DNA of 53,855 nucleotides, taken from an uncultured archaeon. Lineage in GTDB: Archaea > Nanobdellota > Nanobdellia > Pacearchaeales > GW2011-AR1. The DNA is taken from contig CAKZRD010000024.1 of assembly GCA_937143345.1 (NCBI GenBank), positions 1 to 53,855 on the forward strand, written 5' to 3'. Positions within the stretch are counted from its first letter, which is position 1. Each line of letters starts with the position of its first letter. The notes under the pieces are model-generated. The model saw only the letters and a program-made list of their open reading frames with translations, had not been told where the DNA came from and did no database searches. Below, piece by piece: positions 6,155 through 43,288 of this stretch. The translations under genes were made by a program, and so were the position numbers.

Positions 6155-6212
6155 AAAGAAATTTAATTAAAAAAGTTTAAATATCTTACTAAATAAAATT
6201 TTAAGAGGTTAA

Positions 6213-11387: not shown

Positions 11388-11573
11388 GATTTAAATTTCC
11401 TTCCAGTCATCTTACAACCTTCAAAATTAAACAAAATATAGTTTTGTAAAATTTTTAAACCTATTTTCTTTTGTATAAGTATGAATAAAACAAGAATTTA
11501 AACCCTAAGAACTTATTTTCTCTTAATTCGTCCTTATTAGTTTTTTATACTTTTTGCGATTATTTTTTCATTT

Positions 11574-13249
11574 TTGAGTGATGTAAGACAATTTTTAGAA
11601 AGATTTTTGTTGAAAATAGGAATAGACAGGGCGACAGAATATTTGGGAAGAAAAATTTCTCTAAATTTTTTAATGGAAAATTTTGGAATTCTTTTGACTA
11701 TTTTTTTCGTAACTGTCTTATTTTCAGCAATTTTTTCTTTTATAGAAATTCATTTAATTAACAAAATAGAAGTAAACGCTACTGCAGATTTAAAAAGAAA
11801 ATATTTTTCCCATTTGATAAATCTTGATTATGAATTTTTTACAAAACACAGAACTGGCTTATTTGTTTCTTGTCTTAGTAGGGACGCCGCTGCAATTGAA
11901 AAAGTGACTGATTCTTTGTTTTTTGAATTTTTTTCTTTAATAATATAACTTTTAATAGCTTTTTTCTCGATTCTTTATTTAGGAAAAACTTTCTCATTTA
12001 TTTTAATAATCTTTACAATTGTTTTTTTAACTTATAGTTTTATTCTTCAAAAAAAAGTTAATCTTTATCATGAAGAGGCAAACAAAAAAGAAGATATTGA
12101 AAAAGGGAATATGGCAGATTTCTTTACAAACATCTATTCCATAAAATATTACGAGAAAGAAGACTTTGTAAAAAACAGATTTTTCAATTTAACAGCAGAA
12201 ACAAAAAAAGCTCAAATAAAATCTTAGAATATGTGAAGATATGTTTCAAGCGGCCAGTTGATAATTCTTTCATTGTGGTCTTTTTTTATTGTTTATTTTT
12301 CTTTTAAAAAATTTCTAAATGGGCAAATAAGCATCTGTGATTTAACTTTCTTTATACAACCTTTTGATGTTTATAAATCCTTTATTTAGTTTCGTTTTTA
12401 ATGTGAGAAATCTTATGCGAGGCCTTATAAACTTAGAAGAACTATTTGAATACGGAAAAATAAATTCAAAAATAGCTAATAACATCGGAGCAAAAGAATT
12501 CAAAATAAAAAGAGGAGAAGTTGCTTTTAAAAAAGTTTCTTTTGGTTATGATGAAAAAAGAAAAATCTTTGAAGATTTTAATCTAAAAATTCCTGCATGG
12601 AAAAAAGTTGCTCTTGTAGGACATTCTGGTTCTGGAAAAACAACCTTAATCAAACTTCTTTATAGATTTTATGATGTCCAAGACTGAAAAATTTTAGTCG
12701 ATGGTCAAAATATAAGAGATATAAGGCAAGAATCTTTAAGAAAAGAAATGGCAATAGTTCCACAAGAATGTGTTCTATTCGATGATAGCATTTTTAATAA
12801 TATTAAATTTTCAAAACCGGACGCAACAAACGAAGAAGTCTGTAAAGCTATAAAATTCGCTAAGCTTGATAAATTTATAGAAAATCTTCCTCAAAAAGAA
12901 AACACAATCGTCGGAGAGATGGGAATTAAACTTTCTGGAGGAGAAAAGAAAAGAGGTTTCTATTGCAAGAGCAATTTTAACAAATAAAAAAATTTTAATT
13001 TTGGATGAAGCAACTTCTTCTCTTGATTCAGAAACTAAGAAAGAAATTCAAGAAGAGATTAAAGAATTAACAAAAAGAAGAACAACAATCATTATCGCTT
13101 ACAAACTTTCTACAATTATGAGTGCGGACATTATTGTTGTTTTAAAGAAAGGAAAAATTGTCCAAATAGGAAAACACAAAGTTTTAATAAATATGAATGA
13201 AGAATATTCTAATTTATGGAGATTACAAAAAGGAGGTTACATTAAATGA
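11574..13249 (+). pseudogene. ABC exporter (TMD-NBD half-transporter, Atm1/MsbA-like), decayed
   Basis: Four track ORFs plus unlisted stretches form one collinear ABC exporter. In-frame stops are TAA at 11946, TAG and TGA near 12225-12235, and TGA at 12685 (the codon after YDVQD). Frameshifts occur near 12360 and inside LSGGEKKR/VSIARAIL near 12955. Walker A (GHSGSGKTT), signature (LSGGEKKR) and Walker B (ILILDEATS) are recognisable. Confidence 0.8.
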
Positions 13250-14115
13250 TAAAAAATGATTTAAAACTTATAGAAAAAAACCTTTCTAAAAAAGAAGAAA
13301 AAAGATTGATAATGCTTGCTCCTTCTTTTTTAACAGATTTTTTTTATCCAGAAATTATATGCCAACTGAGCAACCTTGGTTTTGATGTTATAGTTGAAAT
13401 AACTTTCGGAGCAAAAATGGTTAACCGAGAATATCACCGCCTTTTAAAAGAAAGAAACAAAGAATTGTGGATTTCTTCTACTTGCCCAGGTATTGTAGAA
13501 GGAATAAAAAGAAATGAAAGTTTAAAAGTTTTTGAAAAAAATTTGGCTCCGATAGATTCCCCTATGAAAGCCATGGCAAAAGTTTGTAAAAAACATTATC
13601 CTTTCTATAAAATTTTTTTTCTTTCCCCTTGCCATATGAAAAAAATAGAAGCGGAAAAAATTGAAGAAATAGATTTTGTTATTGATTATCAACAAATGAA
13701 AGAGTTTTTCAAAAAACATAATATTTCTTCTTGCTCAACGAAAAGAAAATTTGACAGATTTTATAATGATTACACAAAAATATATCCTCTTTCTGGAGGT
13801 TTAACAAAAACAGCGCATTTAAAAGGCATTATTAAAAAAAGAGAAGTAATAATAAAAGATGGTTGGGAAAAAGTTAAAAAAATTCTTTATAAACTTAAAA
13901 AAAACCCTGAAAAATATAAAAAAATAAAATTTTTAGATGTTACTTTTTGCAATGGCGGTTGTATCGGAGGCCATTGTACAAATCAAAATATATCTATCCG
14001 AAAAAAGAAAAACCTTGTAAAAGAATATAAAAAATTATCTTTAAAGGAAGCAATTCCTGAAGATAGAATTGGTCTTATAAAAAAAGCTGAAGGGATAAAG
14101 TTTGCATACTTCTAA
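13246..14115 (+). CDS. Minimal [FeFe]-hydrogenase H-cluster-domain-like protein (HydA/Nar1-like)
   Basis: 289 aa. SSTCPG matches L1 TSCCP with one Cys missing. SPCHMKKIE matches L2 PCxxKxxE. FCNGGCIGG matches L3 CxxGCxxGG. Confidence 0.6.
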   Translation: MIKNDLKLIEKNLSKKEEKRLIMLAPSFLTDFFYPEIICQLSNLGFDVIVEITFGAKMVNREYHRLLKERNKELWISSTCPGIVEGIKRNESLKVFEKNLAPIDSPMKAMAKVCKKHYPFYKIFFLSPCHMKKIEAEKIEEIDFVIDYQQMKEFFKKHNISSCSTKRKFDRFYNDYTKIYPLSGGLTKTAHLKGIIKKREVIIKDGWEKVKKILYKLKKNPEKYKKIKFLDVTFCNGGCIGGHCTNQNISIRKKKNLVKEYKKLSLKEAIPEDRIGLIKKAEGIKFAYF

Positions 14116-14203
14116 TTTTTTAAATTTATTCCGAAATCTTAAAATTAAGATAAAAAGCTGACAAAAAAATTATTCATAATTTCGTGCGATTATAAAAATA
14201 TTT

Positions 14204-15259
14204 TTATTTTTCTATCCATTGTATTTCAATAATCTCGTTTCCAAATACAGGTTGTTCTTCTACTCTTGCTATCTTTAAATCTGTTTTTTCATAAACCTCC
14301 GAAACATCTTCCATCTTAATTAAAATCCTTTTTCTTTCTTTGTCAAAAAAAATATTCTTGGTTATTCCTCTTATTTTTTTAATATTTTCTTTCGGATTTT
14401 CAAAAACAACAAAATAAACAACATTTCCATTTTTCAATCGTTTACCGAATGGAAGAATTTTTCTTCTTAAAAAACGATTTCTTAATTGGTATAAATCTTT
14501 TGTTTCCGCACTACAAAGATGAACTCTTAATTTTGTTTTCTTTTTCTCTAAATATTTCAAAATCTTTTTTCCTGTCTCCAGAGAATTTTTTATTGTGTAA
14601 GTGTCCTTATTTAATTTAAATTTATTTTCAATTTTTTTTTGATTCGTTTCTGAAATTTCAAATTCGTTTATATTAACAAATGAAATAAAATCCTCGATTT
14701 TTTGAATAAAACTTATTATAGCTTTTTCTTTATTTGGAAGACAAGGGAGCTCTATACCTATTTTTTTATTAAAAATCATCGAAGCTTTTTTTATTTTTTC
14801 TATTTCATCATTAATAACTTTTTCATCTTTTTTTAGAAAAATCGAAGGATGAAATCTAACTTCGTCAACATAAAAAGAAAGTTTTCTTAATTTTTTCTCT
14901 CTGACGAGATTCAATGGCAAATAAATATGAATATGAAATTTTTTACCAAAATTTTTTCTTAATTCTCTTAAAATTTTTAGTGTCTTATTCAAATTTATTA
15001 ATGGGTCTCCTCCAGTAACTCCAACTCCATTAGAATTACTCTCTTTTATTTCTTCGATAATTTCTTTAATTTTTTTGACTGGTCTCTCATTAATAAAAAT
15101 TTTATTTGTTTTTTTTCTAAAATCACTTAAAGAACAATACCAACAATTTCTTGAACACCTTCCACCTATAAACAAAACAGATTTTTCTCCCCGAACACAA
15201 AGCTTACAACCTTCAGAAATTCCATTTAGTGAATACGAAGAAAATTTTGTTTTTTTCAT
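14204..15259 (-). CDS. Radical SAM protein (PflA-related, COG2108-like)
   Basis: 351 aa. The CSRNCWYC sequence is a Cx3Cx2C motif, preceded by CKLC. Confidence 0.7.
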   Translation of the reverse strand: MKKTKFSSYSLNGISEGCKLCVRGEKSVLFIGGRCSRNCWYCSLSDFRKKTNKIFINERPVKKIKEIIEEIKESNSNGVGVTGGDPLINLNKTLKILRELRKNFGKKFHIHIYLPLNLVREKKLRKLSFYVDEVRFHPSIFLKKDEKVINDEIEKIKKASMIFNKKIGIELPCLPNKEKAIISFIQKIEDFISFVNINEFEISETNQKKIENKFKLNKDTYTIKNSLETGKKILKYLEKKKTKLRVHLCSAETKDLYQLRNRFLRRKILPFGKRLKNGNVVYFVVFENPKENIKKIRGITKNIFFDKERKRILIKMEDVSEVYEKTDLKIARVEEQPVFGNEIIEIQWIEK

Positions 15260-16047
15260 AAACCAAAAAGATCTGTCGCGTTTTTAAAAATTTTTTCTGC
15301 AACTTTTTCTTCTTCAATTTTCTTTATTTTTGCTATTTCTTTTATACTTATTTCAACATTCCAAGGATAATTTATTTCTCCTTTTACCGGGGATAAATAA
15401 GGTGAATCAGTTTCTGTAAGCAAATTCTCTAATGGAACAAGTTCGGCAATTATTTTAAAATGGTTCAACCTTACTAAAACCGGAGGTACAGTTAGAAACC
15501 ACCCATTCCTTACACACTTTTTTATTAAAGATTTTCTTCCATTAAAGCAATGCATCACAACCTTCTTCATCTTAAAATTTTCTAAGATTTCTATACACTC
15601 GAGTTCTGCTTTTCTTGAATGAATTATAACTGGTTTGCCAATTTCTTTCGCAAAATTTAAAATCTTCTCAAAAACTTCTTGTTGTTCTTTTTTATATTCT
15701 ACCGCAATCTGAAAATCCATTCCAATTTCACCTATAGCAACAAATTTTTCCTTATTTTCTTTAACAAAAAGCAATTCTTTCTCAACTGAAAAAGGTTTTA
15801 TTTCTCTTAAATCCTCGTCTCTTTTTATTCTAATTTTTTCTGCAATAGAGTCAAGAGGATAAAAACCTGCCGTCGCTTTAACAAACGGATATTTTTCGGA
15901 GATTTGAAGAACTTTTCTATTTGTTTCAAAGTTTACACCAGAAGAAATAACAACAACATTTTTTTCTTCGCATTTTTTCATGATACTCTCTAAATTTCTA
16001 AAAATTCTTTCATCATCTATATGGGAATGAACATCAATCATTTTCAT
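15256..16047 (-). CDS. tatD: TatD-family metal-dependent hydrolase
   Basis: 263 aa. MIDVHSHID, GEIGMDF and a final TDSPYL are present. Confidence 0.85.
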   Translation of the reverse strand: MKMIDVHSHIDDERIFRNLESIMKKCEEKNVVVISSGVNFETNRKVLQISEKYPFVKATAGFYPLDSIAEKIRIKRDEDLREIKPFSVEKELLFVKENKEKFVAIGEIGMDFQIAVEYKKEQQEVFEKILNFAKEIGKPVIIHSRKAELECIEILENFKMKKVVMHCFNGRKSLIKKCVRNGWFLTVPPVLVRLNHFKIIAELVPLENLLTETDSPYLSPVKGEINYPWNVEISIKEIAKIKKIEEEKVAEKIFKNATDLFGL

Positions 16048-16080
16048 AAAATTTATAAAACAGATAGGATTTAAAAAATT

Positions 16081-16308
16081 ATGGAAAAAATAATTATATT
16101 TTTTATATTGTCTATGCTTTCTGTCTTCTTTGGTTTAATCGGAAAAAAAATAACTTTTTTCGAAAAGAACATCTACAAAAATAAATTTTATTTTCCTTTA
16201 TTTATTTCTATTTTAACTATAACAAATGTTCTATTTCTTTTTATAAATTTAAAAATGTCGATTCTTTTTTTTTCATTTAGTTTAATTGCTTTATCATGGT
16301 ATCTTTAA
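16081..16308 (+). CDS. Small membrane protein
   Basis: 75 aa with two or three hydrophobic helices. No recognisable family. Confidence 0.35.
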   Translation: MEKIIIFFILSMLSVFFGLIGKKITFFEKNIYKNKFYFPLFISILTITNVLFLFINLKMSILFFSFSLIALSWYL

Positions 16309-16309
16309 A

Positions 16310-17023
16310 ATGGTATTTTATCTAATTGGCCTTGGACTTAATAAAGAATCTATCTCAATAGAAGCGAAGAAAGAGTTAGAAAAATGTGAGAAAGTTTATC
16401 TTGAAAAGTATACTGTAGACTTTCCTTATTCTTTAGATGAACTTGAAAAAGCATTAAACAAAAAAATGATCTTTCTGAAAAGAGAAGATGTTGAAAGCGA
16501 AATTTTTATTCTTGAAGCAAAAGAAAAAAATATTGCTCTTTTAGTTTATGGAGATCCATTCACAGCAACCACTCATTCACAATTAATTATCTTTTGCAAA
16601 AGTAAAAAAATTCCATTTAAAATATTTCACAATTCTTCAATAATGAATTCCGTTGGAGAAACTGGCTTGTCCCTTTACAAATTCGGAAAATCTTGCTCTA
16701 TCCCTAAATGGAGTGAAAATTATAAACCAACAAGTTTTATTAATTATTTAAAAGAAAATAAAAAAATTAAGGCACATAGTTTAATTATCGTCGATATAGA
16801 CATAACTTTTAAAGAAGCCATATTTGAATTAGAGGAAGCGTCCAAAAAAGAAAAATTTTCTCTTCCTAAAAAAATTTTAGTTGTTTCAAAAATTGGAACT
16901 GAAAAACAAAAAATAATTTATAAAAAAATAAGCGAAATAAAAAATGAGGAAATAGAAAAACCTTTTTCTTTAATTATTCCCTCGAAAATGCACTATCTTG
17001 AAAGAAAACTATTAAATCAATAA
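16310..17023 (+). CDS. dph5: Diphthine synthase
   Basis: MVFYLIGLGL...VYLEKYT...LVYGDPFTATTH is typical of Dph5. I place the start at ATG 16310 rather than the track's TTG at 16286. Confidence 0.85.
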   Translation: MVFYLIGLGLNKESISIEAKKELEKCEKVYLEKYTVDFPYSLDELEKALNKKMIFLKREDVESEIFILEAKEKNIALLVYGDPFTATTHSQLIIFCKSKKIPFKIFHNSSIMNSVGETGLSLYKFGKSCSIPKWSENYKPTSFINYLKENKKIKAHSLIIVDIDITFKEAIFELEEASKKEKFSLPKKILVVSKIGTEKQKIIYKKISEIKNEEIEKPFSLIIPSKMHYLERKLLNQ

Positions 17024-17403
17024 GGTATTAGGTATTCTTCTGGCATTGCTCCTTTAATTTTTTCTTCTAAAAATCTTTTTTCTTTTTCAGATAGATCACT
17101 TTCATTTACAGAAATTGCATTTCTTCTATTAACTACAACAACATCATAAATTCCTTGGATTCTTCTACCTTCTCTTTTCCATTCTTTATTACTGAATTTT
17201 GTTTCATCAAAAGAAGAAAAATCTCTTAGAGCGTATCTGACTCCATTAACATCATAAAATACAACAATTGGTACATCTTCTCTTTCATTGTTATAACCAC
17301 CATAGCCAACTTTTTCTAATTTAGAAATTTCTTTTCTACAACCACTTCCAACCCCAATAACCAAAGATGCTACAATACTTCTGATTATATTTTTTAATGC
17401 CAT
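17017..17403 (-). CDS. Putative lipoprotein or secreted protein
   Basis: 128 aa. The N-terminal hydrophobic segment ends in GVGSGC, which is lipobox-like. Confidence 0.4.
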   Translation of the reverse strand: MALKNIIRSIVASLVIGVGSGCRKEISKLEKVGYGGYNNEREDVPIVVFYDVNGVRYALRDFSSFDETKFSNKEWKREGRRIQGIYDVVVVNRRNAISVNESDLSEKEKRFLEEKIKGAMPEEYLIPY

Positions 17404-18005: not shown

Positions 18006-19082
18006 ATGGTATTAGATTTTGCAAAAGAGGCAATACAAAATGCAGATAAATATAGCATAAACTTCGACGAACTTAAAGCGGGAAAAGCAAATATAAAAGT
18101 TTTTGGTATGGGTGGTTGCGGTTCAAATATGGTAACTTGGCTTTTCAATAAAGGAATCAGTGGAGCAACAACTTACGCAATAAACACTGATGCATTACAC
18201 CTTTCTATTTCAAAAGCAGACGAAAAAATTCTTATAGGAAAAGAATTAACAAGAGGCCTCGGTTGCGGAGGATATCCTGCTAAGGGAAGAGAGGCAGCGA
18301 AAGAAGCTATCAGCGAGCTAAAAAAGGCTGTATCGGGTTCGGATATGGTTTTTGTTTTAGCTGGTATGGGTGGCGGAACTGGAACTGGCTCGATTCCTGT
18401 ACTTGCACAATTAGCAAAAGAAGCAGGAGCAGTAGTAATTGCAGTAGTTACAATGCCTTTTGAAGCAGAAAAAGCTAGAATTGACAAAGCAGAATTTGGT
18501 TTACAAGAATTAAGAGAAGTTGCTGATACTGTTATTGTCTTAGACAATAATAGGTTAGTTGATGTTGCAGGCCAATTACCTATGGAACAAGCTTTTGCAG
18601 TCGCAAATGAGCTCGTTTCAACAATGATAAAAGGTATTGTAGAAACAATAACATTGCCTTCTTTAATTAACCTTGACTACGCAGATGTCGCAGCAATAAT
18701 GAAAAATGGCGATGTTGCAGTTATAGGTATTGGAGAAGACAACTCAAGCTCTAGAGTAGATACTGCAGTACAACAAGCTTTAACACACCCTCTTTTAGAT
18801 GTAGATTACAGAGGAGCAACAGGTGCTTTAATTCACATAACTTGTGGCCCAGACATGAAATTAGAAGAGTTTGATAATATAGGAAGATTAGTAACAGAAA
18901 ATCTTTCTCCTGAGGCGCAAGTTATTATTGGAGCAAGAATTAACAAAGAGTTCCAAGGGAGAATAAGAGTTATTACAATTATGACCGGAGTTAAATCTCC
19001 TTATATTCTTGGAAAATCCGAATACGAAGAAAAATCTTCAAAATCCTCTGTAAATGACTTTGGTTTAGAAGATTTAAGTTAA
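18006..19082 (+). CDS. ftsZ: Cell division GTPase FtsZ
   Basis: 358 aa. GMGGCGSNMV and the tubulin signature GGGTGTGS are present. Confidence 0.95.
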   Translation: MVLDFAKEAIQNADKYSINFDELKAGKANIKVFGMGGCGSNMVTWLFNKGISGATTYAINTDALHLSISKADEKILIGKELTRGLGCGGYPAKGREAAKEAISELKKAVSGSDMVFVLAGMGGGTGTGSIPVLAQLAKEAGAVVIAVVTMPFEAEKARIDKAEFGLQELREVADTVIVLDNNRLVDVAGQLPMEQAFAVANELVSTMIKGIVETITLPSLINLDYADVAAIMKNGDVAVIGIGEDNSSSRVDTAVQQALTHPLLDVDYRGATGALIHITCGPDMKLEEFDNIGRLVTENLSPEAQVIIGARINKEFQGRIRVITIMTGVKSPYILGKSEYEEKSSKSSVNDFGLEDLS

Positions 19083-34590: not shown

Positions 34591-35397
34591 ATGGTTGGTG
34601 ATAATAACTTGAAAGATCAAGAAATCATTCTAAAAAAATACCTTTCTTTTTTTTTCAACAAAAAATCTTATGATGAATTAAAAAAAGAAGTTATAGAAAA
34701 AGGTTATTCTTTAGAGCTTTTTGATAAAACCTACAACGAATTTAAACAATCACGAATTGGAAAAATTCCTTCTTTTGATTTTAACGAAATAAATAAGATA
34801 CAAAATCAACCAAATATTGACAAATCACAAATAAAACAAGATAATCAATCTCAATATCTAAAAAAAATAGACGACCAATTATTAGAAAAAAAACTTTTTT
34901 CTCAGATTAAAGACGGAAAAGAAGTAGTTATGATTCCAGTTGAAAAAAAAGAATTAGAAAGAGTTTTAAAAGAAAAAAGTCCTAAAAATTTTTTTGTACC
35001 TTCTTCTATAATGACTTATGTCTTTTCTTTAATTTTGCTTATTGCTTCTTTTTATTCTTTATATAACAGCTTTTCTTTGAAGAATATAACTTCTCCACCT
35101 GATAGTGGTGTAGAAATTAAATCGTCTTTCTTCGAAATAGGTTATCCTTTAGTTTTTATATCTGTTTCTGCTATAGACGAAAATCCTTTAAAAATAAATT
35201 TTTTTTATTTATTAGTTGATTTTTTTATTTATTTAGTTGTTGCATATATAATTGATATTTCAATTAGGGCATTTATTTTTTCAATAAAAGAAAATATAAA
35301 AGCGGTTAACAAAGAAGAAAAAGAAAATTTAAATTTCAATAATTTTCCCTCTAACCCCAACATGAAAGACTTTCGTTTTTCTAAACATAGTTTCTAG
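34591..35397 (+). CDS. Hypothetical membrane-anchored protein
   Basis: 268 aa. The N-terminal half is soluble and the C-terminal part has TM segments. Its 3' end overlaps the convergent gene by 69 nt. Confidence 0.4.
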   Translation: MVGDNNLKDQEIILKKYLSFFFNKKSYDELKKEVIEKGYSLELFDKTYNEFKQSRIGKIPSFDFNEINKIQNQPNIDKSQIKQDNQSQYLKKIDDQLLEKKLFSQIKDGKEVVMIPVEKKELERVLKEKSPKNFFVPSSIMTYVFSLILLIASFYSLYNSFSLKNITSPPDSGVEIKSSFFEIGYPLVFISVSAIDENPLKINFFYLLVDFFIYLVVAYIIDISIRAFIFSIKENIKAVNKEEKENLNFNNFPSNPNMKDFRFSKHSF

Positions 35398-35928
35398 TCC
35401 CTCTGCTTCATGAATGTGGGAACATAAAACAACTTCGGGGGAATATTCTTCAATAATTTTTTTTAAGAGTCCACTTCCTTCTATTCCAGAAAATTCTGCC
35501 GAAGATTTTTTAGGATGCAAATGTGAAACAATAACTTTTTTTGTTTTTCTTTTTTTTATGTTATTTAAAATACTTCTTAAAGAATAAAAGTCCTCTTTTT
35601 TATGGTTAAAATTTAAGTTCGAATTACCAAAACCAACAATATCTAAATTTTCTTTTTTGTGGTATTTTAGATGAATATTTTTTAAAGAATATTCTTCTTC
35701 TAAAAACTTAATGTCTGGATCAAAATCCCAATTTCCTGGGACAAAAACAACTTCAAGTCCTCTTTTTTTAAATGGTGTTATTATACTTTCTTTTCTTAAT
35801 GGGTGAGTTAAATCTCCGCACAAAACAACTAAATCAACTTTATATTTTTCTCCTTTTTTTGCGAGTTCTTCAGCTACATTATTTCTTCCGTGGATATCTC
35901 CTGCTGCTAAAATTTTTATTTTTTTCAT
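35329..35928 (-). CDS. Calcineurin-like metallophosphoesterase (YfcE/MJ0936-like)
   Basis: 199 aa. AAGDIHG, LCGDLTH, PGNWD and CSHIHEA are present. Confidence 0.75.
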   Translation of the reverse strand: MKKIKILAAGDIHGRNNVAEELAKKGEKYKVDLVVLCGDLTHPLRKESIITPFKKRGLEVVFVPGNWDFDPDIKFLEEEYSLKNIHLKYHKKENLDIVGFGNSNLNFNHKKEDFYSLRSILNNIKKRKTKKVIVSHLHPKKSSAEFSGIEGSGLLKKIIEEYSPEVVLCSHIHEAEGLETMFRKTKVFHVGVRGKIIEI

Positions 35929-35962: not shown

Positions 35963-37162
35963 CTAAACTCGCTTAAAGTTTTCTGTTTTCCATAATTTTG
36001 AATTATCTTTGATAAAAAAAAGGTACTTATTAAAATCCAGTTTTAAATTATTTTTTATTTCACCTAATGCTTCTTTAATATTAGAAAATTTTTTTGGCTC
36101 TCTTTCGAATGCTCTTCTTAAACTCTCTCGTATTATTCCTACACCTAACGGAGCATAATACTCTTCTCTTTCCTCGTGAAAAACAACAACTTTTGCTTGT
36201 TTTCTTATTCTCATTAGATATTCAACGCAAGATAGTCTATCTGCATAATAGGCTCCAATAACATTTTGGCATAGGTTTTTCTTCCGAAAAAAGATTCATG
36301 ATCACTTACAGTTGATGTTTTTGTTCCCCACAAACTACCAGAAAAAGTTGTTTCCATAACCTCAAACTCAAAATAACCAGGTAAAAAAAGAATTCAAACT
36401 GATTTCCATTGTAATACTCTCCGAAAACGAAAAATTCATTTATGCTTGGAAATTCTTTTACTTTTTCTAAAATCTTTTTTCCTATATTATCATCGACAGC
36501 AGTTATTGTTCATCTTATAGGAACAAATTTTCTGTTTTTTTTCATTCCTAAAAGTCCTGTTGAAAAAAGTTTTTGTATATGACTTATTTCTATGTTTGAA
36601 TTATACAATTCTTCTATTGCTTCAGTAGTTTTAACATAATCTTCTGATATAATAGAATCGACTTTTTTTGGAACAATTACATTTTCTTCAATGACTGCTT
36701 TTCTTAATGGAGCAGGATTTGCCATTATTGAAAAAAATTTTGAAGCTGAAAAAGAAATAACTGGCTTATTATAAAGAAAAAACTCTGTCGAAACAGCTTT
36801 ATTTAACGTTGCTAACTCTTGCAAAGTATTTTTTATTCCTTTTTTAAGTTTAATAATATTCTCTTTATTTCTTGCGTAAATCATTTTTGCTCTGTTAGAA
36901 AGAATATTTTTAATAGACATATTTTTTTAACCAATGCTTCTGGCATGGACATTTTTTCTGTTCCTTTTTCTTCATTAGTTGGAAACAAAATTCCGCAAAA
37001 AACATTTGGATAATCATTTCTACCAACGAAAATTTCTGGCGGGCTTTCTCCTGAAAAATGTTCTTTAATTTTTGGAGAAAAATTTTTTATTTTTTCTAGT
37101 ATTCTGCATTTTCCCCTTCCGCATAATCCTTTTCCCCTACATTTTATACATAATTCTTCCAT
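35963..37162 (-). pseudogene. Nre-family (archaeal DNA-repair-associated) gene, fragmented
   Basis: The N-terminal piece (36881-37162) has CIKCRGKGLCGRGKC. The middle piece (36510-36920) ends FVPIR-TGA and then continues in frame as TITAVDDNIG. Further frame changes through 36215-36400 pass LPGYFEFE and then GAYYADRLSCVEYL. The C-terminal piece is 35963-36214. Confidence 0.6.
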
Positions 37163-37698
37163 AACTCAATTTAGAAAAAGAAGTTTATATTGATTATGTT
37201 CTATTCCCAACGAGACAGAAAGTGCTAAAAAATTATATTTCTATTCCAATTTCATAGTGCTTTAATTTATAACCTAATTTTTCATACAAACCAATAGCTT
37301 TTTTGTTTTTTACTCTCACACCCAATCTAATTTTTGTTGTTATTCTCAAGACCAAATTGGAAGCCAAAATATTTTTAATGAAAATGCGAAACCATCTGAT
37401 TATTTATGGCTTGGGGTACAGGACGTAATAAATAAAAAAAATAAGTTTGTTCTTGTCCGGATTATTTTTCTAAGAGATTTATTTGGTGAAGAATTTCATT
37501 TAAGAAGAGAGAGAATAAGTACTAGCGCAGCTTTGGGAGAAATTGGGACAGAAAAGGCATTTAATTCTGTCTTGTTGTTCAGATAACCAAATTCCGTCTT
37601 TCATAATCCACAATAATTTTCTATTATTCCTATCTTGAAATCTTATAATTGAATTTACAACTCTTTAAAGATGAGTATCATGCACAGTTTCGGTTTTT

Positions 37699-38856
37699 CT
37701 ACTCGTTTTTAATTCCTTTACACAAATGTTTAGAATACATTATTGGTTTTGATAGAAATTGGTCAAGAATTTTACCCCATTTTCCTCTTATCTGATTATT
37801 ATATTCATAAGGTATAACTCCTTTATTATGATACTCTTTATCTAAAGGATTCCATTCTCTTAACATCCTTATTCCTTTACTTCCAGGTTTTGAATTAGCC
37901 TCAATTACAACTAAATTGCCATCTTCAGAAAGTACAAAATCTATTCCTATTTCACCCACAGAATAGTCTTTAGAAAAAGCATTAACAACTTTTATTCCTA
38001 ATTTGTTAATATCTCGTTTTATTTTTTTATAATCTTCAAAAACAACATAAGGATCTTGTGGATGACCTTTTTTTCCAATATTTGCTTGTTCGGAATATGG
38101 AGCTCCAACTCTTACATAAAAACAAGTCATTCCTAAATGTCCTTGACTTCCTCTTTGAAATACTGCTCTAAAATCATATACCCGTCCATCAAGACGATCA
38201 ACATGTATACCTTCTTGAACAAGATAATCTTCACCTATATTATATTTAGATAAATAATTTAATACTTGATGTAGACCATTTAACCTCTGTAATTGATTAT
38301 TAGAACTTGAAATAATTAAAAAATCTTCTTTTCCCAATTCTCTTATAACAAATTGGTTTCTCCCTTGTGAGCTGACTCTTTTTTTTACAAATACAAATCC
38401 TTTTCTTTCTAAAAGATCTTCAAGGCATTCTGCTGAAAAAACATGTGTTTCTGGGGTAGATATTCCTCCATTAACAAACACTGAATAAGCCTTAACTTTA
38501 TCTGCACACATTTCTCTAAATTCTGGAGAATTGACAAAAGAAATTCCTGCTTTAGACATAGCATCTACAATTCTAATTCTTCTTTTATCAGAAATATTTA
38601 TTCTATCATATATCACTTGCGGGATTTCACCCAATAGTTCATACATTGATTTGCCATCCCAATATCTAAGATGTACTTTATCCCTGTATGCAATTCGCAA
38701 GTCTAAGTCTTTTTGTAGAACAATCTGAACTAAGCCCACATTTCTTTTTCTTGCTATATCTGCTCTTTCTTTGTATGCTCTCCATGCAGATTCATTTTTT
38801 GCAGATAAAAATCCAACGAAGTTTTCAAAATAACCCTGATCTAACAATTTTACCAT
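37699..38856 (-). CDS. YheC/YheD-type ATP-grasp ligase
   Basis: RVYDFRAVFQRGSQGHLGMTCFYVRVGAP..ANIGKKG and GEIGIDFVLSEDGNLVVIEANSKPG match the YheC/D ATP-grasp pattern. I prefer ATG 38856 (MVKLLDQGYF) over the track's TTG at 38871. Confidence 0.7.
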   Translation of the reverse strand: MVKLLDQGYFENFVGFLSAKNESAWRAYKERADIARKRNVGLVQIVLQKDLDLRIAYRDKVHLRYWDGKSMYELLGEIPQVIYDRINISDKRRIRIVDAMSKAGISFVNSPEFREMCADKVKAYSVFVNGGISTPETHVFSAECLEDLLERKGFVFVKKRVSSQGRNQFVIRELGKEDFLIISSSNNQLQRLNGLHQVLNYLSKYNIGEDYLVQEGIHVDRLDGRVYDFRAVFQRGSQGHLGMTCFYVRVGAPYSEQANIGKKGHPQDPYVVFEDYKKIKRDINKLGIKVVNAFSKDYSVGEIGIDFVLSEDGNLVVIEANSKPGSKGIRMLREWNPLDKEYHNKGVIPYEYNNQIRGKWGKILDQFLSKPIMYSKHLCKGIKNE

Positions 38857-38975
38857 TAATCCCCCATCCAATAATTTGTCTTTTGTCCTGTTGCTTTTCT
38901 GAAAGAATAATTTAAGTCAGAATATTGAATTCTTATATTTCCATCATAATCTTTACCAACTATCATTTTAGCCAT
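38856..38975 (-). CDS. 39-aa small ORF translationally coupled to the ATP-grasp gene (candidate substrate or precursor peptide)
   Basis: Reads MAKMIVGKDYDGNIRIQYSDLNYSFRKATGQKTNYWMGD*. Its TAA shares one base with the ATP-grasp ATG (TAATG). Below the size cut-off of the ORF track. Confidence 0.4.
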   Translation of the reverse strand: MAKMIVGKDYDGNIRIQYSDLNYSFRKATGQKTNYWMGD

Positions 38976-39022
38976 AGATGTCTCATTCTCTCAAAATTCT
39001 TTTTAACATAGTTTGCAATTGT

Positions 39023-39559
39023 TTAATCATCGGTTAAGTCTCCATAAAAATCTGGAACTGAAATAAGAATTCTCACAGATATTATTCTTAGATCTTTTCT
39101 TAAATAAAATATAAAATTTTCTAACTCTCTTTTGAGCTCATTTGCAACTTCTTTTGCCCAATAAGAAGCATCATATCTTTGTAACAACAATCCTATGAAA
39201 TCAGGTCTTTTTTCTCGTTGAACAGAGGCTCTTTTAATATCTCCTATCCATTCTTCAATAGATTGGCTTTTTTGTTCTATTTGATGTAATGAATAATCAA
39301 CAATATAAACTAAATCTCTTATTGATTGTTTGCTATATTGAGTTATTGCTGATCCAAATTTAGAATGATAAGAATAATCTTTCCTTAGAACAGAATCAAT
39401 TCTTTCTTCAAATAACATTAGGTAAATGTGTCTTGATCTATCTCCTGTTTCAAAACAAGGTTGATAATTATAATACTCTGCCATTTCATCTGATATTTGA
39501 TTACAACCGTGATTAGTTTCATTGAAATAACCTATTTCAACTAGTTTTTGTTTTGTCAT
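39023..39559 (-). CDS. Hypothetical protein, cassette member
   Basis: 178 aa. No family recognised. The C-terminus is acidic (DLTDD). ATGA overlap with the upstream gene. Confidence 0.5.
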   Translation of the reverse strand: MTKQKLVEIGYFNETNHGCNQISDEMAEYYNYQPCFETGDRSRHIYLMLFEERIDSVLRKDYSYHSKFGSAITQYSKQSIRDLVYIVDYSLHQIEQKSQSIEEWIGDIKRASVQREKRPDFIGLLLQRYDASYWAKEVANELKRELENFIFYLRKDLRIISVRILISVPDFYGDLTDD

Positions 39560-40929
39560 CTCTTATATTCTCCATCAATAATATTTACCATTTGAACGCT
39601 TGTTGGATAGATAAAAGCATGACTATGTGTCCAAGCAACAGGATTACCCCTTATATAGAAAATATCAAAAGGAATCATTGTCCCTACTGTAAAAGTTTGT
39701 CTTAACTTTTCAGATTTGTGAACATGACCGGTTATGCTTTTTCCAAAATCATTTTCTTTTGAAGTTATATTTCCACGTCCACCATTAGGACCAGTATCTC
39801 CATGATTTCCAAGCTGATATCCTCTAATTTTCAAGTCATCCCATCTCGTCAAAAAAGTTACATTAACAGGCACACCATAAACATACTTAATTCCTTCTTC
39901 AACTGGATTTTTTCCATCTGCATAAGCAGAAGCCATCTTAAATGCAATTCTTGCATTTATCGGATCTTTTATAAACCTTCCTTCATCAAGATATCTATTT
40001 AAAAATTCGAGATGGTTTGATTGAATGATATAAATCTGCCCATTACCTACTTTATTAGCAATTATTTCTAATTCTTTACCACATAAAAGTAACTCCTGCT
40101 CAAGTGAAAGATTTCCTTTATCAGCACCTTCGCGTATCAGTTGATAAATAAACTGTTTTTGCATATGGTGTGAAACACTATAACCATCAAAAAAGTCATG
40201 AAGAATAAGCCTTTCAGGTTCATATTCAGCAATCATATCTAAAGTTGCTTTTCTAACTTTCCTATCAGTATATCCAGTATGCCAATCACCACAAACCATT
40301 GCTAATGGTCTTACATCTCTTAATTTTCTTCCATCATATTCAACTCCTAAATCACTAAATTTTCCATTCTTTTGTGAAACTAAATTTCTCCAATGATACT
40401 TTTTCTCATTAATCACTTCCACAACTATTGCACCATACTCATGATCTCTTAATGCAATATTTCCTAATCTTCTTCTTTCTGCACTGACATCATCACCTGT
40501 TGCATAATTTGGCTCAGTTGAGGAACCTGTTGTAATCAATGCTTTTGGCATCTTACTATTAGAATGAGGGATATATTTCCATCTTTGTTTTGGGCTTGCA
40601 AATATAAGAGACCTTTCTCTTTGGGCAAATCTCTGCAACCCGGTAATTGGATCAATCTGATAAGGTCTAACATTAAACTGTTCAATTCCAATATTCTCAT
40701 TGAGAGGTTTTCTTTCGTATAACAAACCATATTCTAAAATCCTCTCATGAAAATTCTCAGGAACATAATCTTCAGATGCAGAACTGCCAATCATTGGTAG
40801 AATAATAAGTTCGGCATGCATTTTATCTATATAGGATTCTAAAGAATCTAAGAATTGATCGTTAGGTTTTGCCAAAGCTTGTGCACTTGTTATTACATAA
40901 GTCTTTTTTTTATGTTTGACATCCCCCAT
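39556..40929 (-). CDS. Two-domain protein: unknown N-terminal domain plus a C-terminal calcineurin-like/SbcD-like metallophosphoesterase
   Basis: All five phosphoesterase motifs occur in order: CGDWHTG, HDFFDG, QSNHLE, GNHGD and GHVH. The start is placed at ATG 40929 (MGDVKHKKK) because a TATA-like box sits about 25-30 nt upstream. The track start at 41016 adds a hydrophobic low-complexity extension. Confidence 0.6.
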   Translation of the reverse strand: MGDVKHKKKTYVITSAQALAKPNDQFLDSLESYIDKMHAELIILPMIGSSASEDYVPENFHERILEYGLLYERKPLNENIGIEQFNVRPYQIDPITGLQRFAQRERSLIFASPKQRWKYIPHSNSKMPKALITTGSSTEPNYATGDDVSAERRRLGNIALRDHEYGAIVVEVINEKKYHWRNLVSQKNGKFSDLGVEYDGRKLRDVRPLAMVCGDWHTGYTDRKVRKATLDMIAEYEPERLILHDFFDGYSVSHHMQKQFIYQLIREGADKGNLSLEQELLLCGKELEIIANKVGNGQIYIIQSNHLEFLNRYLDEGRFIKDPINARIAFKMASAYADGKNPVEEGIKYVYGVPVNVTFLTRWDDLKIRGYQLGNHGDTGPNGGRGNITSKENDFGKSITGHVHKSEKLRQTFTVGTMIPFDIFYIRGNPVAWTHSHAFIYPTSVQMVNIIDGEYKR

Positions 40930-40950
40930 ACATATTTTAAAGAAAAAGAA

Positions 40951-40961
40951 TAAATATATAC
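40951..40961 (-). promoter_or_regulatory. TATA-like box for the minus-strand cassette
   Basis: On the minus strand TATATATTTA is centred about 27 nt upstream of ATG 40929. This suggests a leaderless or short-leader mRNA. Confidence 0.3.
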
Positions 40962-40993
40962 TTTTAGTGATTAAAGTATATAGCATAGAAAAA

Positions 40994-41000
40994 TTTAAAT
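40994..41000 (+). promoter_or_regulatory. TATA-like box for the divergent AbrB-PhoU regulator
   Basis: TTTAAAT lies about 25-31 nt upstream of ATG 41025. Confidence 0.3.
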
Positions 41001-41024
41001 ACTCTAATATATTCAAGTAATTAT

Positions 41025-41897
41025 ATGAATGAATTCACAAGAAAAATACAAATTGTAGGAAATAGGTCTTATGCTGTTTCTCTTCCAAAAAAGTGGGTCA
41101 TTAAGAATAATCTTGAGAAAAAAGAAATAAATATAATAGAAAAAGAAGGAAATTTAATACTCTCTCCAAAAAAAATTCAAAAAAATACAACAGATAAGGA
41201 CATTCTAGTTGAAAATTTAGAATTAATTCCCAGTATTTTATTGCTATGTTATTCAAGAGCTGTTTCAAAAGTTAGACTAATTTTCAAAAATAAAAATGAT
41301 TATTTATCTGCAAAACCTATAGTGCTTGAGATACTATCACATTTAGAAGGTTTTAAAATAATAAACGATAATGATGATGATAATAATATAACAATTTGTG
41401 ATTCATATGAAAAGACAAACATTTTAATTCGTGATCTAGCAAAAAGAATGGTTATAATCCTAAATAATATGGTTGATTGTATCTTAAATAACAACAGCAA
41501 AACAAAAAATATATTGGAAAATGAATCAGATAGCCTTTATCATTTCTCAAAAAGAATACTTTATGAAAGTAGTCAAAAATTAAATTTAAGAGATGATACT
41601 GTTAATGACATTGAAGAAATATTTTTATGGAGACTAATATTCAAAAAATTGGAAAACATTGGAGACATTTTAGAAAAAACTACTAAAGAATCTTATATAA
41701 AAGAAAATATCCAAGAGGTATTAAATAAACTTAATGATTTTATCATATTACAAAAGAAAATAAGAATAAATGAGATTCAAAAAATTAAAGAGATGAAATT
41801 TAAAAATTTAAATAATGATAAAATCAAGGAATTAGTTATTGATATTTTAAATAACCTCTTGTTAATTGATTTAAATAAAACTTACTTTCCAAACTAA
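41025..41897 (+). CDS. AbrB/SpoVT-domain plus PhoU-like-domain transcriptional regulator
   Basis: 290 aa. The N-terminal IQIVGNRSYAVSLPKKWVIKNNL is an AbrB-type swapped-hairpin motif. The remainder is helical and PhoU-like, an architecture common in archaea. Confidence 0.6.
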   Translation: MNEFTRKIQIVGNRSYAVSLPKKWVIKNNLEKKEINIIEKEGNLILSPKKIQKNTTDKDILVENLELIPSILLLCYSRAVSKVRLIFKNKNDYLSAKPIVLEILSHLEGFKIINDNDDDNNITICDSYEKTNILIRDLAKRMVIILNNMVDCILNNNSKTKNILENESDSLYHFSKRILYESSQKLNLRDDTVNDIEEIFLWRLIFKKLENIGDILEKTTKESYIKENIQEVLNKLNDFIILQKKIRINEIQKIKEMKFKNLNNDKIKELVIDILNNLLLIDLNKTYFPN

Positions 41898-42221
41898 AAA
41901 AAGTAAGCAAAAAACAGAATTCCCTTACGAAACTACGGCGACAAACTCTTAATAATAAAACTAAACTATGAACTTTCTGACAAATTCCAAATTAACTCCG
42001 CGGTTTTTCTTGCGAGAAAAAAATGCTCGATCATGTTGCATTTTTTCATTCTGAAAAACCTCGCATAACACCAATTAGTTTCAATAAGCTAGCGAGTGTT
42101 TTTTACTAAAACTATTTAAACAACCTTCTACAAGAAACATTAATAATAAAATAAATTTATCAAAAAAATAAAAATGAAAGTAGGTGAAAATAGATATTGC
42201 TTCAATAATCCAATATGGTAA

Positions 42222-42575
42222 ATGCAATTATTGGGTTTTTCAATATTTCTTCTATTTATAGCTCTCGCTGTTATTCAAATTATAACTTGGTCTGTAAAAA
42301 GAAAGATTATTGCGGCAAGAAACGAACTTGGAATAAAACAGCCGTTTATTGATAAAAAATTATATAACTTATCGCTGATGAATACTTCTCTTACAAAAGA
42401 AGAAATTGCAAAGTTTCTAAAAGAATTACAGAAATCTTTTGAACTAGCTAGGAAATTAGATTTTGTAAGAATTATATTATTCTTTGTTTTGATTGGTACT
42501 TCTTTTATTTATAACACTATCTCAGACATAACTCTAAATATAGCGGATTCCAACCTGCCATCAACTCCCATATAG
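42222..42575 (+). CDS. Hypothetical 2-TM membrane protein
   Basis: 117 aa. It is the only intact ORF in a 1.4-kb low-coding stretch. Confidence 0.3.
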   Translation: MQLLGFSIFLLFIALAVIQIITWSVKRKIIAARNELGIKQPFIDKKLYNLSLMNTSLTKEEIAKFLKELQKSFELARKLDFVRIILFFVLIGTSFIYNTISDITLNIADSNLPSTPI

Positions 42576-43288
42576 TAGGTAAGGTGTTCCAGACTTAAAT
42601 AATACTTATCGCAAAAATTCTACTCTTCGAAACTCTAAGTTTCTCGTTGTTTCATCTCTATCGGTTCAGCTCTCAAAATGCTTCCGCATTTTAGATGAGC
42701 CTCACGAGGAAACAAGAGCCTAATATGATTAGTTTCAATAAATAGGGGTACACACCTTATGCTCACTTCGTTCGCAAGAGAAAAAATCAATCTACAGCAA
42801 GTGGTGTCGAAATTCTACTTCAGGCTGATTTAAAATATCATCTATGCAACCAATAAAAACAGGTTTTTTCTCAATTCTATCTCTAACCTGTCTAAGAAAA
42901 TTATTCCTTTCATCTCCTGAAGCCACTACTACCTATTTGTATACTACGATTATTGCTCCACCAAAAACCTCTCTAAGAGTATCTTGATTTTGCATTACAT
43001 ACTTACTTTCTTCTTAAAATCCATATTCCATTTTGATTTTTTCTCAGAAACCGCTCTGAGGCACGAACACTTCTTACTTGATAATATGAATAAAAACAAA
43101 AATACACAACAACTTCTATTATTAAAATGGACAGCGTCCAGCCGTCCTAAAGTGTCTCTTTAAATTAATATGGCTCACGACTTTGTTTTTTCCCCGGTAC
43201 CTTACACTAAAAATCAACCCTCATTAGTTTGAGAAAACTAAAAAGACACAAAGATAAACTTTTTAATCTTCCTTAAATTTTTAATTTT

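Follow-up and report, generated by a model that had tools for sequence, protein, structure and literature searches.

The stretch of archaeal DNA analyzed in this study, hereafter the window, comprises 53,855 nt (assembly GCA_937143345.1, contig CAKZRD010000024.1; Nanobdellota; Pacearchaeales; GW2011-AR1) and carries at positions 37699-41897 a gene cluster built around a 457-aa metallophosphoesterase. Our comparative analysis indicates that this locus is a partly decayed copy of a cluster that recurs in DPANN archaea, and that the 457-aa protein, its N-terminal half included, is, as judged by profile, alignment, and predicted fold, a full-length homologue of the A1 family of phage T5. In its intact form the cluster consists of a regulator gene transcribed divergently from the A1-like gene, which is followed by a gene for a 142-aa protein resembling nucleoside 2-deoxyribosyltransferases (NDT-like, optional), genes for 195-aa and 205-aa proteins, a gene for an ATP-grasp ligase of the YheC/YheD type (YheC/D), and a gene for a 124-aa protein. 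The window locus is a degraded example, with three working genes and three broken ones (Table 1). An earlier sequence-only reading of the region had described a four-gene unit consisting of the phosphoesterase, a 178-aa orphan, a 39-aa open reading frame (ORF), and the ligase, facing a divergent regulator; all of these ORFs were found where that reading had placed them, but two of the four, the 178-aa and 39-aa ORFs, proved to be remnants of the 195-aa/205-aa gene pair. We hold the identities of the parts and the history of their decay with high confidence.

The A1-like protein and its cluster in DPANN archaea

PHROGs alone identified the nuclease: PHROG 1745, "DNA transfer protein", matched the 457-aa protein with an E value of 1.2e-81 over profile positions 83-538 of 542, whereas searches of Pfam, NCBIfam, and PADLOC returned nothing for it. 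Our tblastn search matched 1122 phage records, 1108 of them at 95-98% query coverage; the T5-like phage genes matched were those annotated as A1, with approximately 25% identity over 96% of the query, and the best phage match (34%) came from an Ochrobactrum jumbo phage. An AlphaFold2 model built on 53 homologues reached a predicted local distance difference test score (pLDDT) of 92.7, and a Foldseek comparison with predicted phage homologues in BFVD gave query-based TM-scores (TMq) of 0.92 (A0A6G6XXJ9) and 0.88 (Pseudomonas phage pf16). Residues D215, H217, D245, N305, H306, H376, H402, and H404, representing all five motifs, were invariant across the 53 homologues, the window protein included, so that the complete phosphoesterase motif set recognized in the sequence-only reading was borne out. 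The same reading had proposed a separate N-terminal domain of unknown kind and a phosphoesterase of unknown kind; both proposals are superseded, as the N-terminal half belongs to the phage A1 family fold and the protein matches a characterized phage family. The start codon was assigned to the ATG at 40929; the mechanically derived ORF opens at a TTG at 41016, yet every homologue begins at the ATG. The ratio of nonsynonymous to synonymous substitution rates (dN/dS) was 0.12 for the window copy and ranged from 0.04 to 0.12 across the comparisons, indicating strong purifying selection.

The T5 protein, known as the pre-early "DNA transfer protein A1" of the Demerecviridae, has been reported to be essential, toxic, and both necessary and sufficient for chromosome degradation in vivo, and has been termed a predicted metallophosphatase that is mostly confined to the Demerecviridae (bioRxiv 10.64898/2026.04.02.716235). 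The archaeal protein resembles it in full-length homology, fold, and catalytic residues, and by homology to T5 A1 would be expected to degrade DNA. It is approximately 100-130 aa shorter than the A1 annotated in T5-like phages, and its setting is different, in that the archaeal copies are chromosomal and lie between housekeeping genes rather than in a first-step-transfer region. The A1 gene of T5-like phages is three genes away from dmp, which encodes a deoxynucleoside monophosphate (dNMP) phosphatase; phmmer searches with A2, dmp, and their neighbors (SP15 queries) found nothing in the window region or in the 120 loci described below. The partners of the archaeal nuclease are instead a divergent AbrB-PhoU-like regulator and often an ATP-grasp enzyme. 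The family comprises 411 clusters among 5.8 billion proteins, and a scan of 185,579 species genomes, restricted by the patterns it used, picked up eight A1-like loci. No paper on A1 homologues from DPANN archaea or their viruses, or from archaeal viruses in general, came up in a literature search. With this nuclease, a known phage family gains a new branch that is cellular and archaeal; the ligase and the regulator come from known superfamilies. An A1-like gene of 47% identity (match at 7172-8530) was also present on a contig assigned to the Candidate Phyla Radiation (Candidatus Microgenomatus; L013, DYGI01000004.1), indicating that the A1 family spans the boundary between archaea and bacteria among ultra-small organisms.

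Since the C-terminal half of the A1-like protein is of the calcineurin type and shares its catalytic superfamily and motif set with Mre11/SbcD and the small subunit of PolD (DP1), it could be a housekeeping DNA-repair or replication nuclease that acts like these enzymes and has incidental neighbors. The weak structural neighbors of this half, among them the Pol alpha B-subunit and Pyrococcus DP1, fit such a function, as does the strength of purifying selection. So does the intein (PF14890) borne by one homologue (P0077, 767 aa); inteins favor replication and repair genes and are unusual elsewhere. However, the Foldseek comparison with the Protein Data Bank (PDB) yielded weak metallophosphoesterase matches only (TMq <= 0.33, E >= 3e-3), the N-terminal half is different, and sequence and profile searches of the PDB with the A1-like protein and the regulator returned chance matches only (HIV protease, MMP-12, plasmepsin). 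No SbcC/Rad50-like or polymerase partner lies nearby, the distribution of the family is far too patchy for a core function, and a conserved, dedicated divergent repressor would be unusual for housekeeping repair genes. A repair or replication function is improbable on this evidence.

For the wider comparison, 120 loci around homologues were fetched (L numbers below), roughly 95 of them distinct. The regulator lay divergently upstream of the A1-like gene in approximately 20 of the distinct loci, at A1 identities from 88% down to 42%. The sequence-only reading had held that it would fall if homologues of its genes never co-localized in other genomes; the regulator, A1-like, and ATP-grasp genes were found together in L014/L015, L068, L111/L112, L113, and L114, and the regulator/A1-like pair alone in approximately 17 further loci. 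A1 identity was 86-90% in L014/L015, L068, and L111/L112, where the gene order is A1 - 194 aa - 205 aa - ATP-grasp (L111/L112, L068) or A1 - 142 aa - 195 aa - 205 aa - ATP-grasp - 124 aa (L014/L015). In L113, the regulator is divergent from an A1-like gene of 516 aa that is followed by genes for 138, 201, and 197 aa and the ligase, and in L114, a 280-kb Pacearchaeota contig, it is divergent from an A1-like gene of 515 aa that overlaps the ligase gene by 4 nt; compared with the window, these two loci retain only 29-34% identity in the A1-like protein, with 50-52% in the regulator and 48-57% in the ligase. A neighbor-joining tree of 84 A1-like proteins placed the regulator-linked members in at least four positions, interleaved with copies from contigs that encode major head, portal, or terminase proteins or family B DNA polymerase (PolB), RadA, replication factor C (RFC), and ribonucleotide reductase (RNR); the tree is crude and leaves the number of transfers unsettled. 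The neighbors of the cellular loci include genes for pyruvate:ferredoxin oxidoreductase, a tRNA methyltransferase, Pelota, aminoacyl-tRNA synthetases, and a polyprenyl synthase.

The accessory genes could be characterized to varied degrees. In five lineages an NDT-like gene comes directly after the A1-like gene or overlaps it, namely L014/L015, L006, L030, and L042, with members of the 142-aa family, and L016, whose partner is a clear nucleoside 2-deoxyribosyltransferase (PF05014, 1.1e-11); the NDT-like signal of the 142-aa family is weak (Nuc_deoxyri_tr2, 0.023). The 124-aa family shows a PD...E-L-K motif on reading of the sequence, the L113 member has a weak VRR_NUC match (0.052), and the family is probably a PD-(D/E)xK nuclease. 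Searches of Pfam, PHROGs, and PADLOC with the intact accessory proteins (142, 195, 205, 124, 120, 93, 247, and 228 aa) gave sub-threshold matches only, including DUF7175 (7.6e-4) and LmuA (0.0022). In agreement with the sequence-only reading, no PADLOC, Pfam, or NCBIfam model covers the set; neither this gene combination nor the 195-, 205-, and 124-aa families nor the operator-like repeat treated below is described in the libraries and literature searched. In a groundwater clade (L047, L049, L051, L053, L054), the regulator and A1-like genes are separated by an extra gene of approximately 227 aa whose product has a signal-peptide-like N-terminus, a gene for a secreted trypsin-like protease (approximately 254 aa) follows the A1-like gene, and the spacer adjoining the regulator contains the perfect palindrome GCTATATAGC.

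Table 1. Positions of the cluster elements and adjoining debris in the window
Feature	Position	Strand	Basis
Metallophosphoesterase of the phage T5 A1 type (putative DNase), 457 aa, intact	39556-40929	-	phrog_1745, tblastn, fold
AbrB-PhoU-like regulator, 290 aa, intact	41025-41897	+	Pfam, relatives
Divergent promoter spacer, 95 bp	40930-41024	.	Sequence reading
YheC/YheD-type ATP-grasp ligase, 385 aa, intact, start ATG 38856	37699-38856	-	PF14398
178-aa ORF, in-frame deletion fusion (pseudogene product)	39023-39559	-	tblastn of L014 genes, DNA alignment
39-aa ORF, last 39 codons of a 205-aa-family gene	38856-38975	-	tblastn, DNA alignment
Remnant, first ~58 codons of a 124-aa-family gene	37563-37736	-	tblastn, tblastx
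Flanking debris outside the cluster: Nre in three ORFs and a 44-aa GNAT fragment	35963-37367	-	Pfam

Decay products, ligase, and regulator of the window copy

The course of decay was read from a four-way DNA alignment of the window with L111, L068, and L014. Bases 39559-39175 of the 178-aa ORF stem from a gene of the 195-aa family and bases 39174-39026 from the middle of a gene of the 205-aa family, the junction at 39175/39174 being in frame across a TATG microhomology; the supposed orphan gene of the sequence-only reading thus dissolves into a fusion of two genes by deletion. The 195-family part lost 126 nt in frame near its 5' end (approximately 39550), a deletion of approximately 359 nt removed the 3' end of the 195-family gene along with the first ~93 codons of the 205-family gene, and a nonsense codon (GAA to TAA) at 39023-39025 closes the ORF. 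Beyond a 1-nt deletion at 38979/38978, a conserved internal ATG opens the 39-aa ORF, which had been taken for a gene of its own and which is the severed end of the 205-family gene, 74% identical in tblastn to residues 167-205 of the L014 205-aa protein. Pairwise dN/dS of this remnant was 0.5-0.6, compared with 0.13 for intact 205-aa genes, a difference that is noisy over 39 codons and merely suggestive. The two overlaps noted in the sequence-only reading are real: an ATGA at 39556-39559 joins the A1-like stop and the 178-aa start, and a TAATG at 38854-38858 joins the 39-aa stop and the ligase ATG.

Homologues of the 178-aa product formed four clusters only in 5.8 billion proteins, namely a 177-aa copy of 99% identity on a separate 17-kb contig (P0121), two proteins of 194-198 aa matching its first two-thirds (P0122/P0123), and one of 205 aa matching its last third (P0124). 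The occurrence of the nearly identical product on an independent contig argues for the reality of both lesions, the nonsense codon and the 1-nt deletion, and against assembly errors. Pfam, NCBIfam, and PADLOC returned nothing for the 178-aa and 39-aa products. At the other end of the cluster, the 124-aa-family remnant showed 53% identity to residues 1-58 of the L014 124-aa protein (tblastn), and similarity to L111/L112 covered 37561-41907 (tblastx), nearly the very interval delimited in the sequence-only reading, between unrelated flanks, the likeness of the relatives ending at approximately 37561. These alignments show that the 178-aa and 39-aa ORFs are decay products of the 195-aa/205-aa gene pair and that the 124-aa gene is truncated; the two "genes" of the window should be annotated as pseudogene fragments.

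The ligase was confirmed as a member of the YheC/D ATP-grasp family (PF14398, 8.5e-36; 123.9 bits, cut-off 26.8), which it shares with the spore-coat-associated YheC/YheD proteins of Bacillus; unlike these, it comes from an archaeon that does not sporulate, and its gene shares an operon with that of a nuclease. Its AlphaFold2 model (pLDDT 91.1) had 717 ATP-grasp matches in the PDB at E <= 1e-3, in the order ArgX-LysW (3vpb, E 2.8e-14), Ddl, RimK-RpsF (5zk6, RimK with its substrate S6), and graspetide ligases, and the fold is accordingly like that of the LysX/ArgX-LysW and RimK-S6 systems, with 3vpb, 5zk6, RimK, and LysX as best PDB matches. The predicted Mg/ATP ligands K158, D306, E319, and N321 are invariant, and dN/dS was 0.18. 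By contrast, the protein lies far below the model cut-offs of both LysX (TIGR02144, 33.6 bits against 275.6) and RimK (53.9 against 143.4). Homologues formed 18 clusters at E < 1e-10, and in all contexts fetched except L115 the ligase gene adjoins an A1-like gene. The L115 homologue (8001-9155) lies without an A1-like gene beside genes for an NrtR-like regulator, phosphoribosyl pyrophosphate (PRPP) synthetase, and two NUDIX proteins, and is convergent with a giant 2613-aa ORF (9205-17046). We know of no substrate of YheC or YheD.

The 205-aa family is very rare, with 21 representative clusters among 1.84 billion proteins. A module made up of its last ~45 residues is attached to other N-terminal regions in P0158 and P0162 and stands alone in P0157 (43 aa) and P0160 (60 aa). 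Members end almost always in W-D with acidic residues before it, and ten of them in P-E-x-W-D. In L014, L068, L111, and L113 the 205-aa gene directly adjoins the ligase gene or overlaps it, as its remnant does in the window. LysW has a comparable acidic, Trp-containing carboxy-terminus, EDWGE, to whose terminal glutamate LysX/ArgX ligate their substrate (PMC10433800). The conserved P-E-x-W-D terminus and the abutting gene make the intact 205-aa protein a plausible substrate by this parallel, and we infer that the ligase may modify its tail. The parallel is suggestive, and the systems differ in part: the putative substrate is 205 aa long and has none of the zinc-finger cysteines (Cys4 site) of LysW, and the lysine/arginine pathway genes of the LysX-LysW system (LysZ/Y/J/K) occur in none of the loci.

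One of the two possibilities raised in the sequence-only reading amounts to a ribosomally synthesized and post-translationally modified peptide (RiPP) or other small-peptide system, in which the ATP-grasp enzyme would modify or ligate the 39-aa product as precursor in partnership with the phosphoesterase and the 178-aa protein. The 39-aa ORF and the ligase gene are indeed coupled by TAATG, graspetide ligases (PsnB 7drm, 7mgv) are among the structural matches of the ligase, and short C-terminal domains do stand alone elsewhere, as in P0157 and P0160. However, the same sequence forms the end of a 197-205-aa protein in L014, L068, L111, L113, and L006; in the window it has been cut off by the nonsense codon and the 1-nt deletion, it ends in NYWMGD, with the terminal W-D of the family mutated to G-D (W to G), and its dN/dS is raised. 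Neither a leader/core architecture nor a repeated Thr/Ser-Asp/Glu core was found in it, and ArgX, Ddl, and RimK outrank the graspetide ligases. This explanation, already largely refuted by these comparisons, is highly unlikely: action on the 39-aa peptide fails because the peptide gene is a pseudogene fragment with a broken W-D motif. A modified form, in which the intact 205-aa protein is the substrate, survives as plausible.

The regulator begins with a swapped-hairpin DNA-binding domain of the AbrB/MazE type (Pfam MazE_antitoxin, 3.8e-7; 30.4 bits, cut-off 24.7), which was matched in all 15 of its relatives examined. The AbrB half of the "AbrB-PhoU" name given in the sequence-only reading was therefore confirmed; the PhoU half fell below the Pfam cut-off in the window copy and was matched in seven of the 15 relatives at E <= 0.01 (best 4.6e-5). 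An E210-x3-D214 motif is invariant in the C-terminal helical, PhoU-like domain of the regulator and its relatives, and the PDB profile search matched no PhoU structure. The layout, AbrB followed by a helical PhoU-like ExxxD domain, resembles that of PhoU phosphate-signaling proteins and the archaeal AbrB-PhoU "phosphate uptake regulators", from which the window protein differs in its pairing with a nuclease operon, in lying apart from pst/pho genes, and in its sub-threshold PhoU score. dN/dS relative to L111 was 0.30. A type II toxin-antitoxin module with a MazE/AbrB antitoxin was considered and excluded, the regulator being 290 aa long and divergently transcribed in all its loci, not a small co-transcribed antitoxin.

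The 95-bp spacer between the ATG at 40929 and the ATG at 41025 carries TATA-like boxes facing both ways, as described in the sequence-only reading: a TTTAAATA box approximately 25 nt upstream of the regulator ATG, and a box approximately 26-32 nt upstream of the A1-like ATG, where a leaderless archaeal mRNA would need it. The inverted repeat TATATAC-N14-GTATATA (40955-40982) occurs once in the window and in 0 of 100 shuffles, and its arm nearer the nuclease gene (40955-40961) overlaps the A1-like TATA-like box. The same repeat was present once each at the equivalent spacer position of L014/L015, L017, L025, and L111/L112; the GCTATATA(C/G) core recurred in the spacers of L008, L031, and L114, as a perfect palindrome, GCTATATAGC, in those of L047, L049, and L054, and in a one-mismatch form, GTTATATAC, in that of L113. 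The repeat may thus be regarded as a putative operator of the regulator, whose occupation would occlude the nuclease promoter.

Composition, flanks, and the question of viral origin

The window evidently represents a fragment of a DPANN archaeal chromosome, since Nre, diphthamide synthase, and a P-type ATPase mark it as archaeal (Pfam and ORF analysis) and its proteins have their closest named homologues in metagenome-assembled genomes (MAGs) of Woesearchaeota, Nanoarchaeota, and Pacearchaeota. Scans of the whole window for tRNA genes and Rfam families gave no match. The compositional distinctness claimed for the cassette held in bulk and failed in kind. Its G+C content was 31.1%, compared with 27.6% for the window, a value reached by 0.7% of windows of the same size; G+C at third codon positions (GC3) was 0.19, 0.145, and 0.128 for the three larger cassette ORFs, compared with a mean of 0.175 +/- 0.026 over 48 window ORFs, and the excess sits in the first and second codon positions, a pattern shared by other conserved window genes. 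The cassette therefore carries no foreign-DNA signature; its G+C excess mirrors amino-acid composition, a foreign composition was ruled out by GC3 at background, and GC3 gives no sign of recent acquisition. The most G+C-rich ORF of the window, at 18006-19082 (36.9%, GC1 51%), lies well above the cluster genes, indicating that high G+C here follows conserved proteins and not foreign DNA.

The borders of the cluster had been described as gene debris, which was correct for the archaeal DNA-repair gene Nre, broken into Nre_N 1-70, Nre_N 71-207, and Nre_C at 35963-37162, and for the GNAT C-terminal fragment of 44 aa at 37233-37367 (Pfam); the supposed HEAT fragment (approximately 37563-37736) is the truncated 124-aa-family gene of the cluster. 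Within approximately 3.5 kb, six decayed genes are found here, comprising Nre, the GNAT fragment, and the broken cluster genes. The region has a second small metallophosphoesterase of the calcineurin type, an unrelated protein of 199 aa (35329-35928, minus strand; PF00149, 3.5e-18) encoded 1.8 kb from the cluster, and the 3' end of its gene overlaps a convergent 268-aa ORF (34591-35397, plus strand) by 69 nt. On the other side, the 1.4-kb low-coding stretch reported earlier exists (41898-43288) and contains a single ORF of more than 100 aa (42222-42575), probably encoding a membrane protein. Rfam (E <= 1), a folding test (z -0.54), Pfam searches of its short ORFs, and a comparison with phage DNA were all negative, and the stretch may be a degraded minus-strand gene. 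Positions 42500-43250 have 35-39% G+C and a strongly negative GC skew against the 27.6% background. A scan for sigma-70 promoters and terminators gave the same counts as shuffled sequence, the bacterial model being uninformative in an archaeon.

The virus-dominated distribution of the A1 family (1122 phage records and 14 IMG/VR loci), the two broken genes and the truncated third gene of the window cluster, and the adjoining pseudogenes could together indicate a decaying remnant of an integrated virus, or of a viral module acquired horizontally, without present cellular function. Genuine viral contigs do contain A1-like copies of 56-65% identity. In L116/L117 (JGI 3300022868, 3300025642), a 45-kb contig of viral type, an A1-like gene of 65% identity (10001-11362 of L116) accompanies genes for an archaeal-type RadA/Rad51, an RFC-like clamp loader, class II RNR, and PolB as well as many HNH and GIY-YIG homing endonucleases; this contig probably derives from an archaeal virus, and viruses of its type are a likely route of A1 exchange with DPANN cells. 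In contrast, the three largest genes of the window cluster are intact (dN/dS 0.12-0.30), GC3 equals the host background, and the regulator, the ligase, and the 205-aa family had no homologue in 50,697 GenBank phage genomes; pattern scans of IMG/VR, run with the regulator and ligase alignments and not with the 205-aa family, found none either. Among the five cassette proteins, the only notable PHROGs match was A1, with no viral hallmark; the flanking genes were scanned with Pfam only, and no window-wide search for an integrase was made. No convincing terminal repeats or att-like sites flank the block, no tRNA gene lies in the window, and the association of regulator, nuclease, and ligase is kept where the nuclease is only 29-34% identical. 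The absence of viral homologues of the other genes, together with the housekeeping neighbors, indicates that only the nuclease is common to viruses and that the cluster itself is cellular. A viral remnant is an unlikely explanation, and the alternative raised in the sequence-only reading, a horizontally acquired nuclease-based defense or virus-derived module, stands as far as the phosphoesterase belongs to a virus-dominated family and fails for the regulator, ligase, and 205-aa genes, the composition, and the surroundings; a provirus is not supported.

Possible roles of the cluster in genome-reduced symbionts

A working model can be proposed for the intact cluster. Through its AbrB domain, the regulator would bind the inverted repeat over the nuclease TATA box and keep the operon off, and the PhoU-like domain, via its ExxxD motif, would lift repression on a signal tied to phosphate or metals. 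The A1-like enzyme, when produced, would degrade DNA as T5 A1 does in Escherichia coli, and in fuller clusters the translationally coupled NDT-like protein and the PD-(D/E)xK protein could process DNA or its products. The ATP-grasp enzyme would attach a compound bearing an amino group to the acidic C-terminal end of the 205-aa protein, in the manner of LysX/ArgX-LysW and RimK-S6, a step probably lost in the window copy. Within this model, DNA degradation gated by a repressor is the part we consider reasonably probable. As the role we tentatively choose the degradation of acquired DNA as a source of nucleotides and phosphate in hosts that largely lack nucleotide synthesis, slightly favored over an antiviral or suicide role; decayed cluster, mechanism, and scavenging taken as one statement are likewise offered only tentatively.

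Scavenging is favored on account of the PhoU-like sensor domain, the coupled NDT-like enzymes, and the housekeeping surroundings, as well as the ligase paralogue of L115 beside PRPP synthetase, NUDIX, and NrtR-like genes and the proximity of T5 A1 to a dNMP phosphatase gene. It is further favored by the biology of the hosts, since DPANN archaea largely lack nucleotide synthesis, many of their genomes being without purine and pyrimidine synthesis (PMC6349945). Several points weigh against this interpretation. The PhoU domain of the window regulator scored below the Pfam cut-off (16.5 bits against 23.5; E 0.011). Evidence for the nuclease activity of T5 A1 was obtained in vivo and not in vitro (bioRxiv 10.64898/2026.04.02.716235), and the DNase activity of the archaeal protein is extrapolated from homology only. 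The link between the ligase and its presumed substrate is not universal, as a 205-aa gene is missing beside the ligase of L114 and L115 and L006 and L042 show the reverse, and the L113 member of the 205-aa family ends in HKE instead of W-D. A cytoplasmic DNase would require imported DNA or self-protection, a metabolic function sits poorly with so rare and patchy a family, and NDT-like proteins occur in conflict systems too. Conflict systems would account at least equally well for the patchy distribution, the exchange with viruses, the pair of nucleases, the varying accessory genes, and the ease of decay.

An antiviral or abortive-infection module, in which the repressor restrains a toxic A1-type DNase (plus the PD-(D/E)xK protein in intact copies) until infection releases it and viral DNA, with or without the cell's own, is destroyed, is the most serious competitor, judged only slightly less likely than scavenging. 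T5 A1 alone is toxic and the chromosome is degraded on its expression, intact copies carry a second nuclease, and accessory gene content differs between loci. The family is rare, patchy, and interleaved in the tree with viral copies, including those of 56-65% identity in viral contigs; the same block lies in unrelated contexts among relatives of 83-90% identity, and the window copy is decaying beside other pseudogenes. In the Nanoarchaeota loci L003/L004/L009 (approximately 1068-12451), an A1-like gene without the AbrB regulator lies between an XPD-like helicase gene and a GTPase gene, in a region that holds tyrosine integrase, serine resolvase, DUF559, and PDDEXK genes and looks mobile or defense-type. 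On the other hand, none of 5027 PADLOC models matched the five window proteins or ten proteins of intact relatives, the weak matches seen (PDC-M13B, 0.02; LmuA, 0.0022) involving unrelated stretches. Most loci lie between housekeeping genes and not in defense islands, no infection sensor is recognizable, and the PhoU-like domain points to phosphate or metal status; the NDT-like coupling is also compatible with salvage.

A more far-reaching possibility, which we consider quite doubtful, is that a domesticated T5-A1-type DNase under an AbrB-PhoU-like switch has been coupled to a new carboxy-terminal ligation pair, the 205-aa P-E-x-W-D protein and the YheC/D enzyme. Ligation would then arm the DNA or nucleotide step, protect against it, or carry its intermediates, and the 39-aa remnant of the window could persist as a minimal tail module. 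If this coupled system is real, YheC/D would have its first assigned type of substrate, and the A1 family its first role in cells.

The mechanism of T5 A1, a protein that drives the destruction of host DNA and is required for second-step DNA transfer, has been studied for a long time and is still unsolved. Our results show that its family is widespread in uncultured viruses and has been taken into the chromosomes of DPANN archaea, where it is under strong purifying selection with a dedicated repressor, an operator-like repeat, and recurrent partner genes of unknown kind. The window protein is a small, well-predicted A1 homologue from outside phages and is tractable for biochemistry, and the protein with the P-E-x-W-D tail is a candidate substrate for the uncharacterized YheC/D family of ATP-grasp enzymes. 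The finding bears on how genome-reduced symbionts may supply themselves with nucleotides or defend themselves against viruses.

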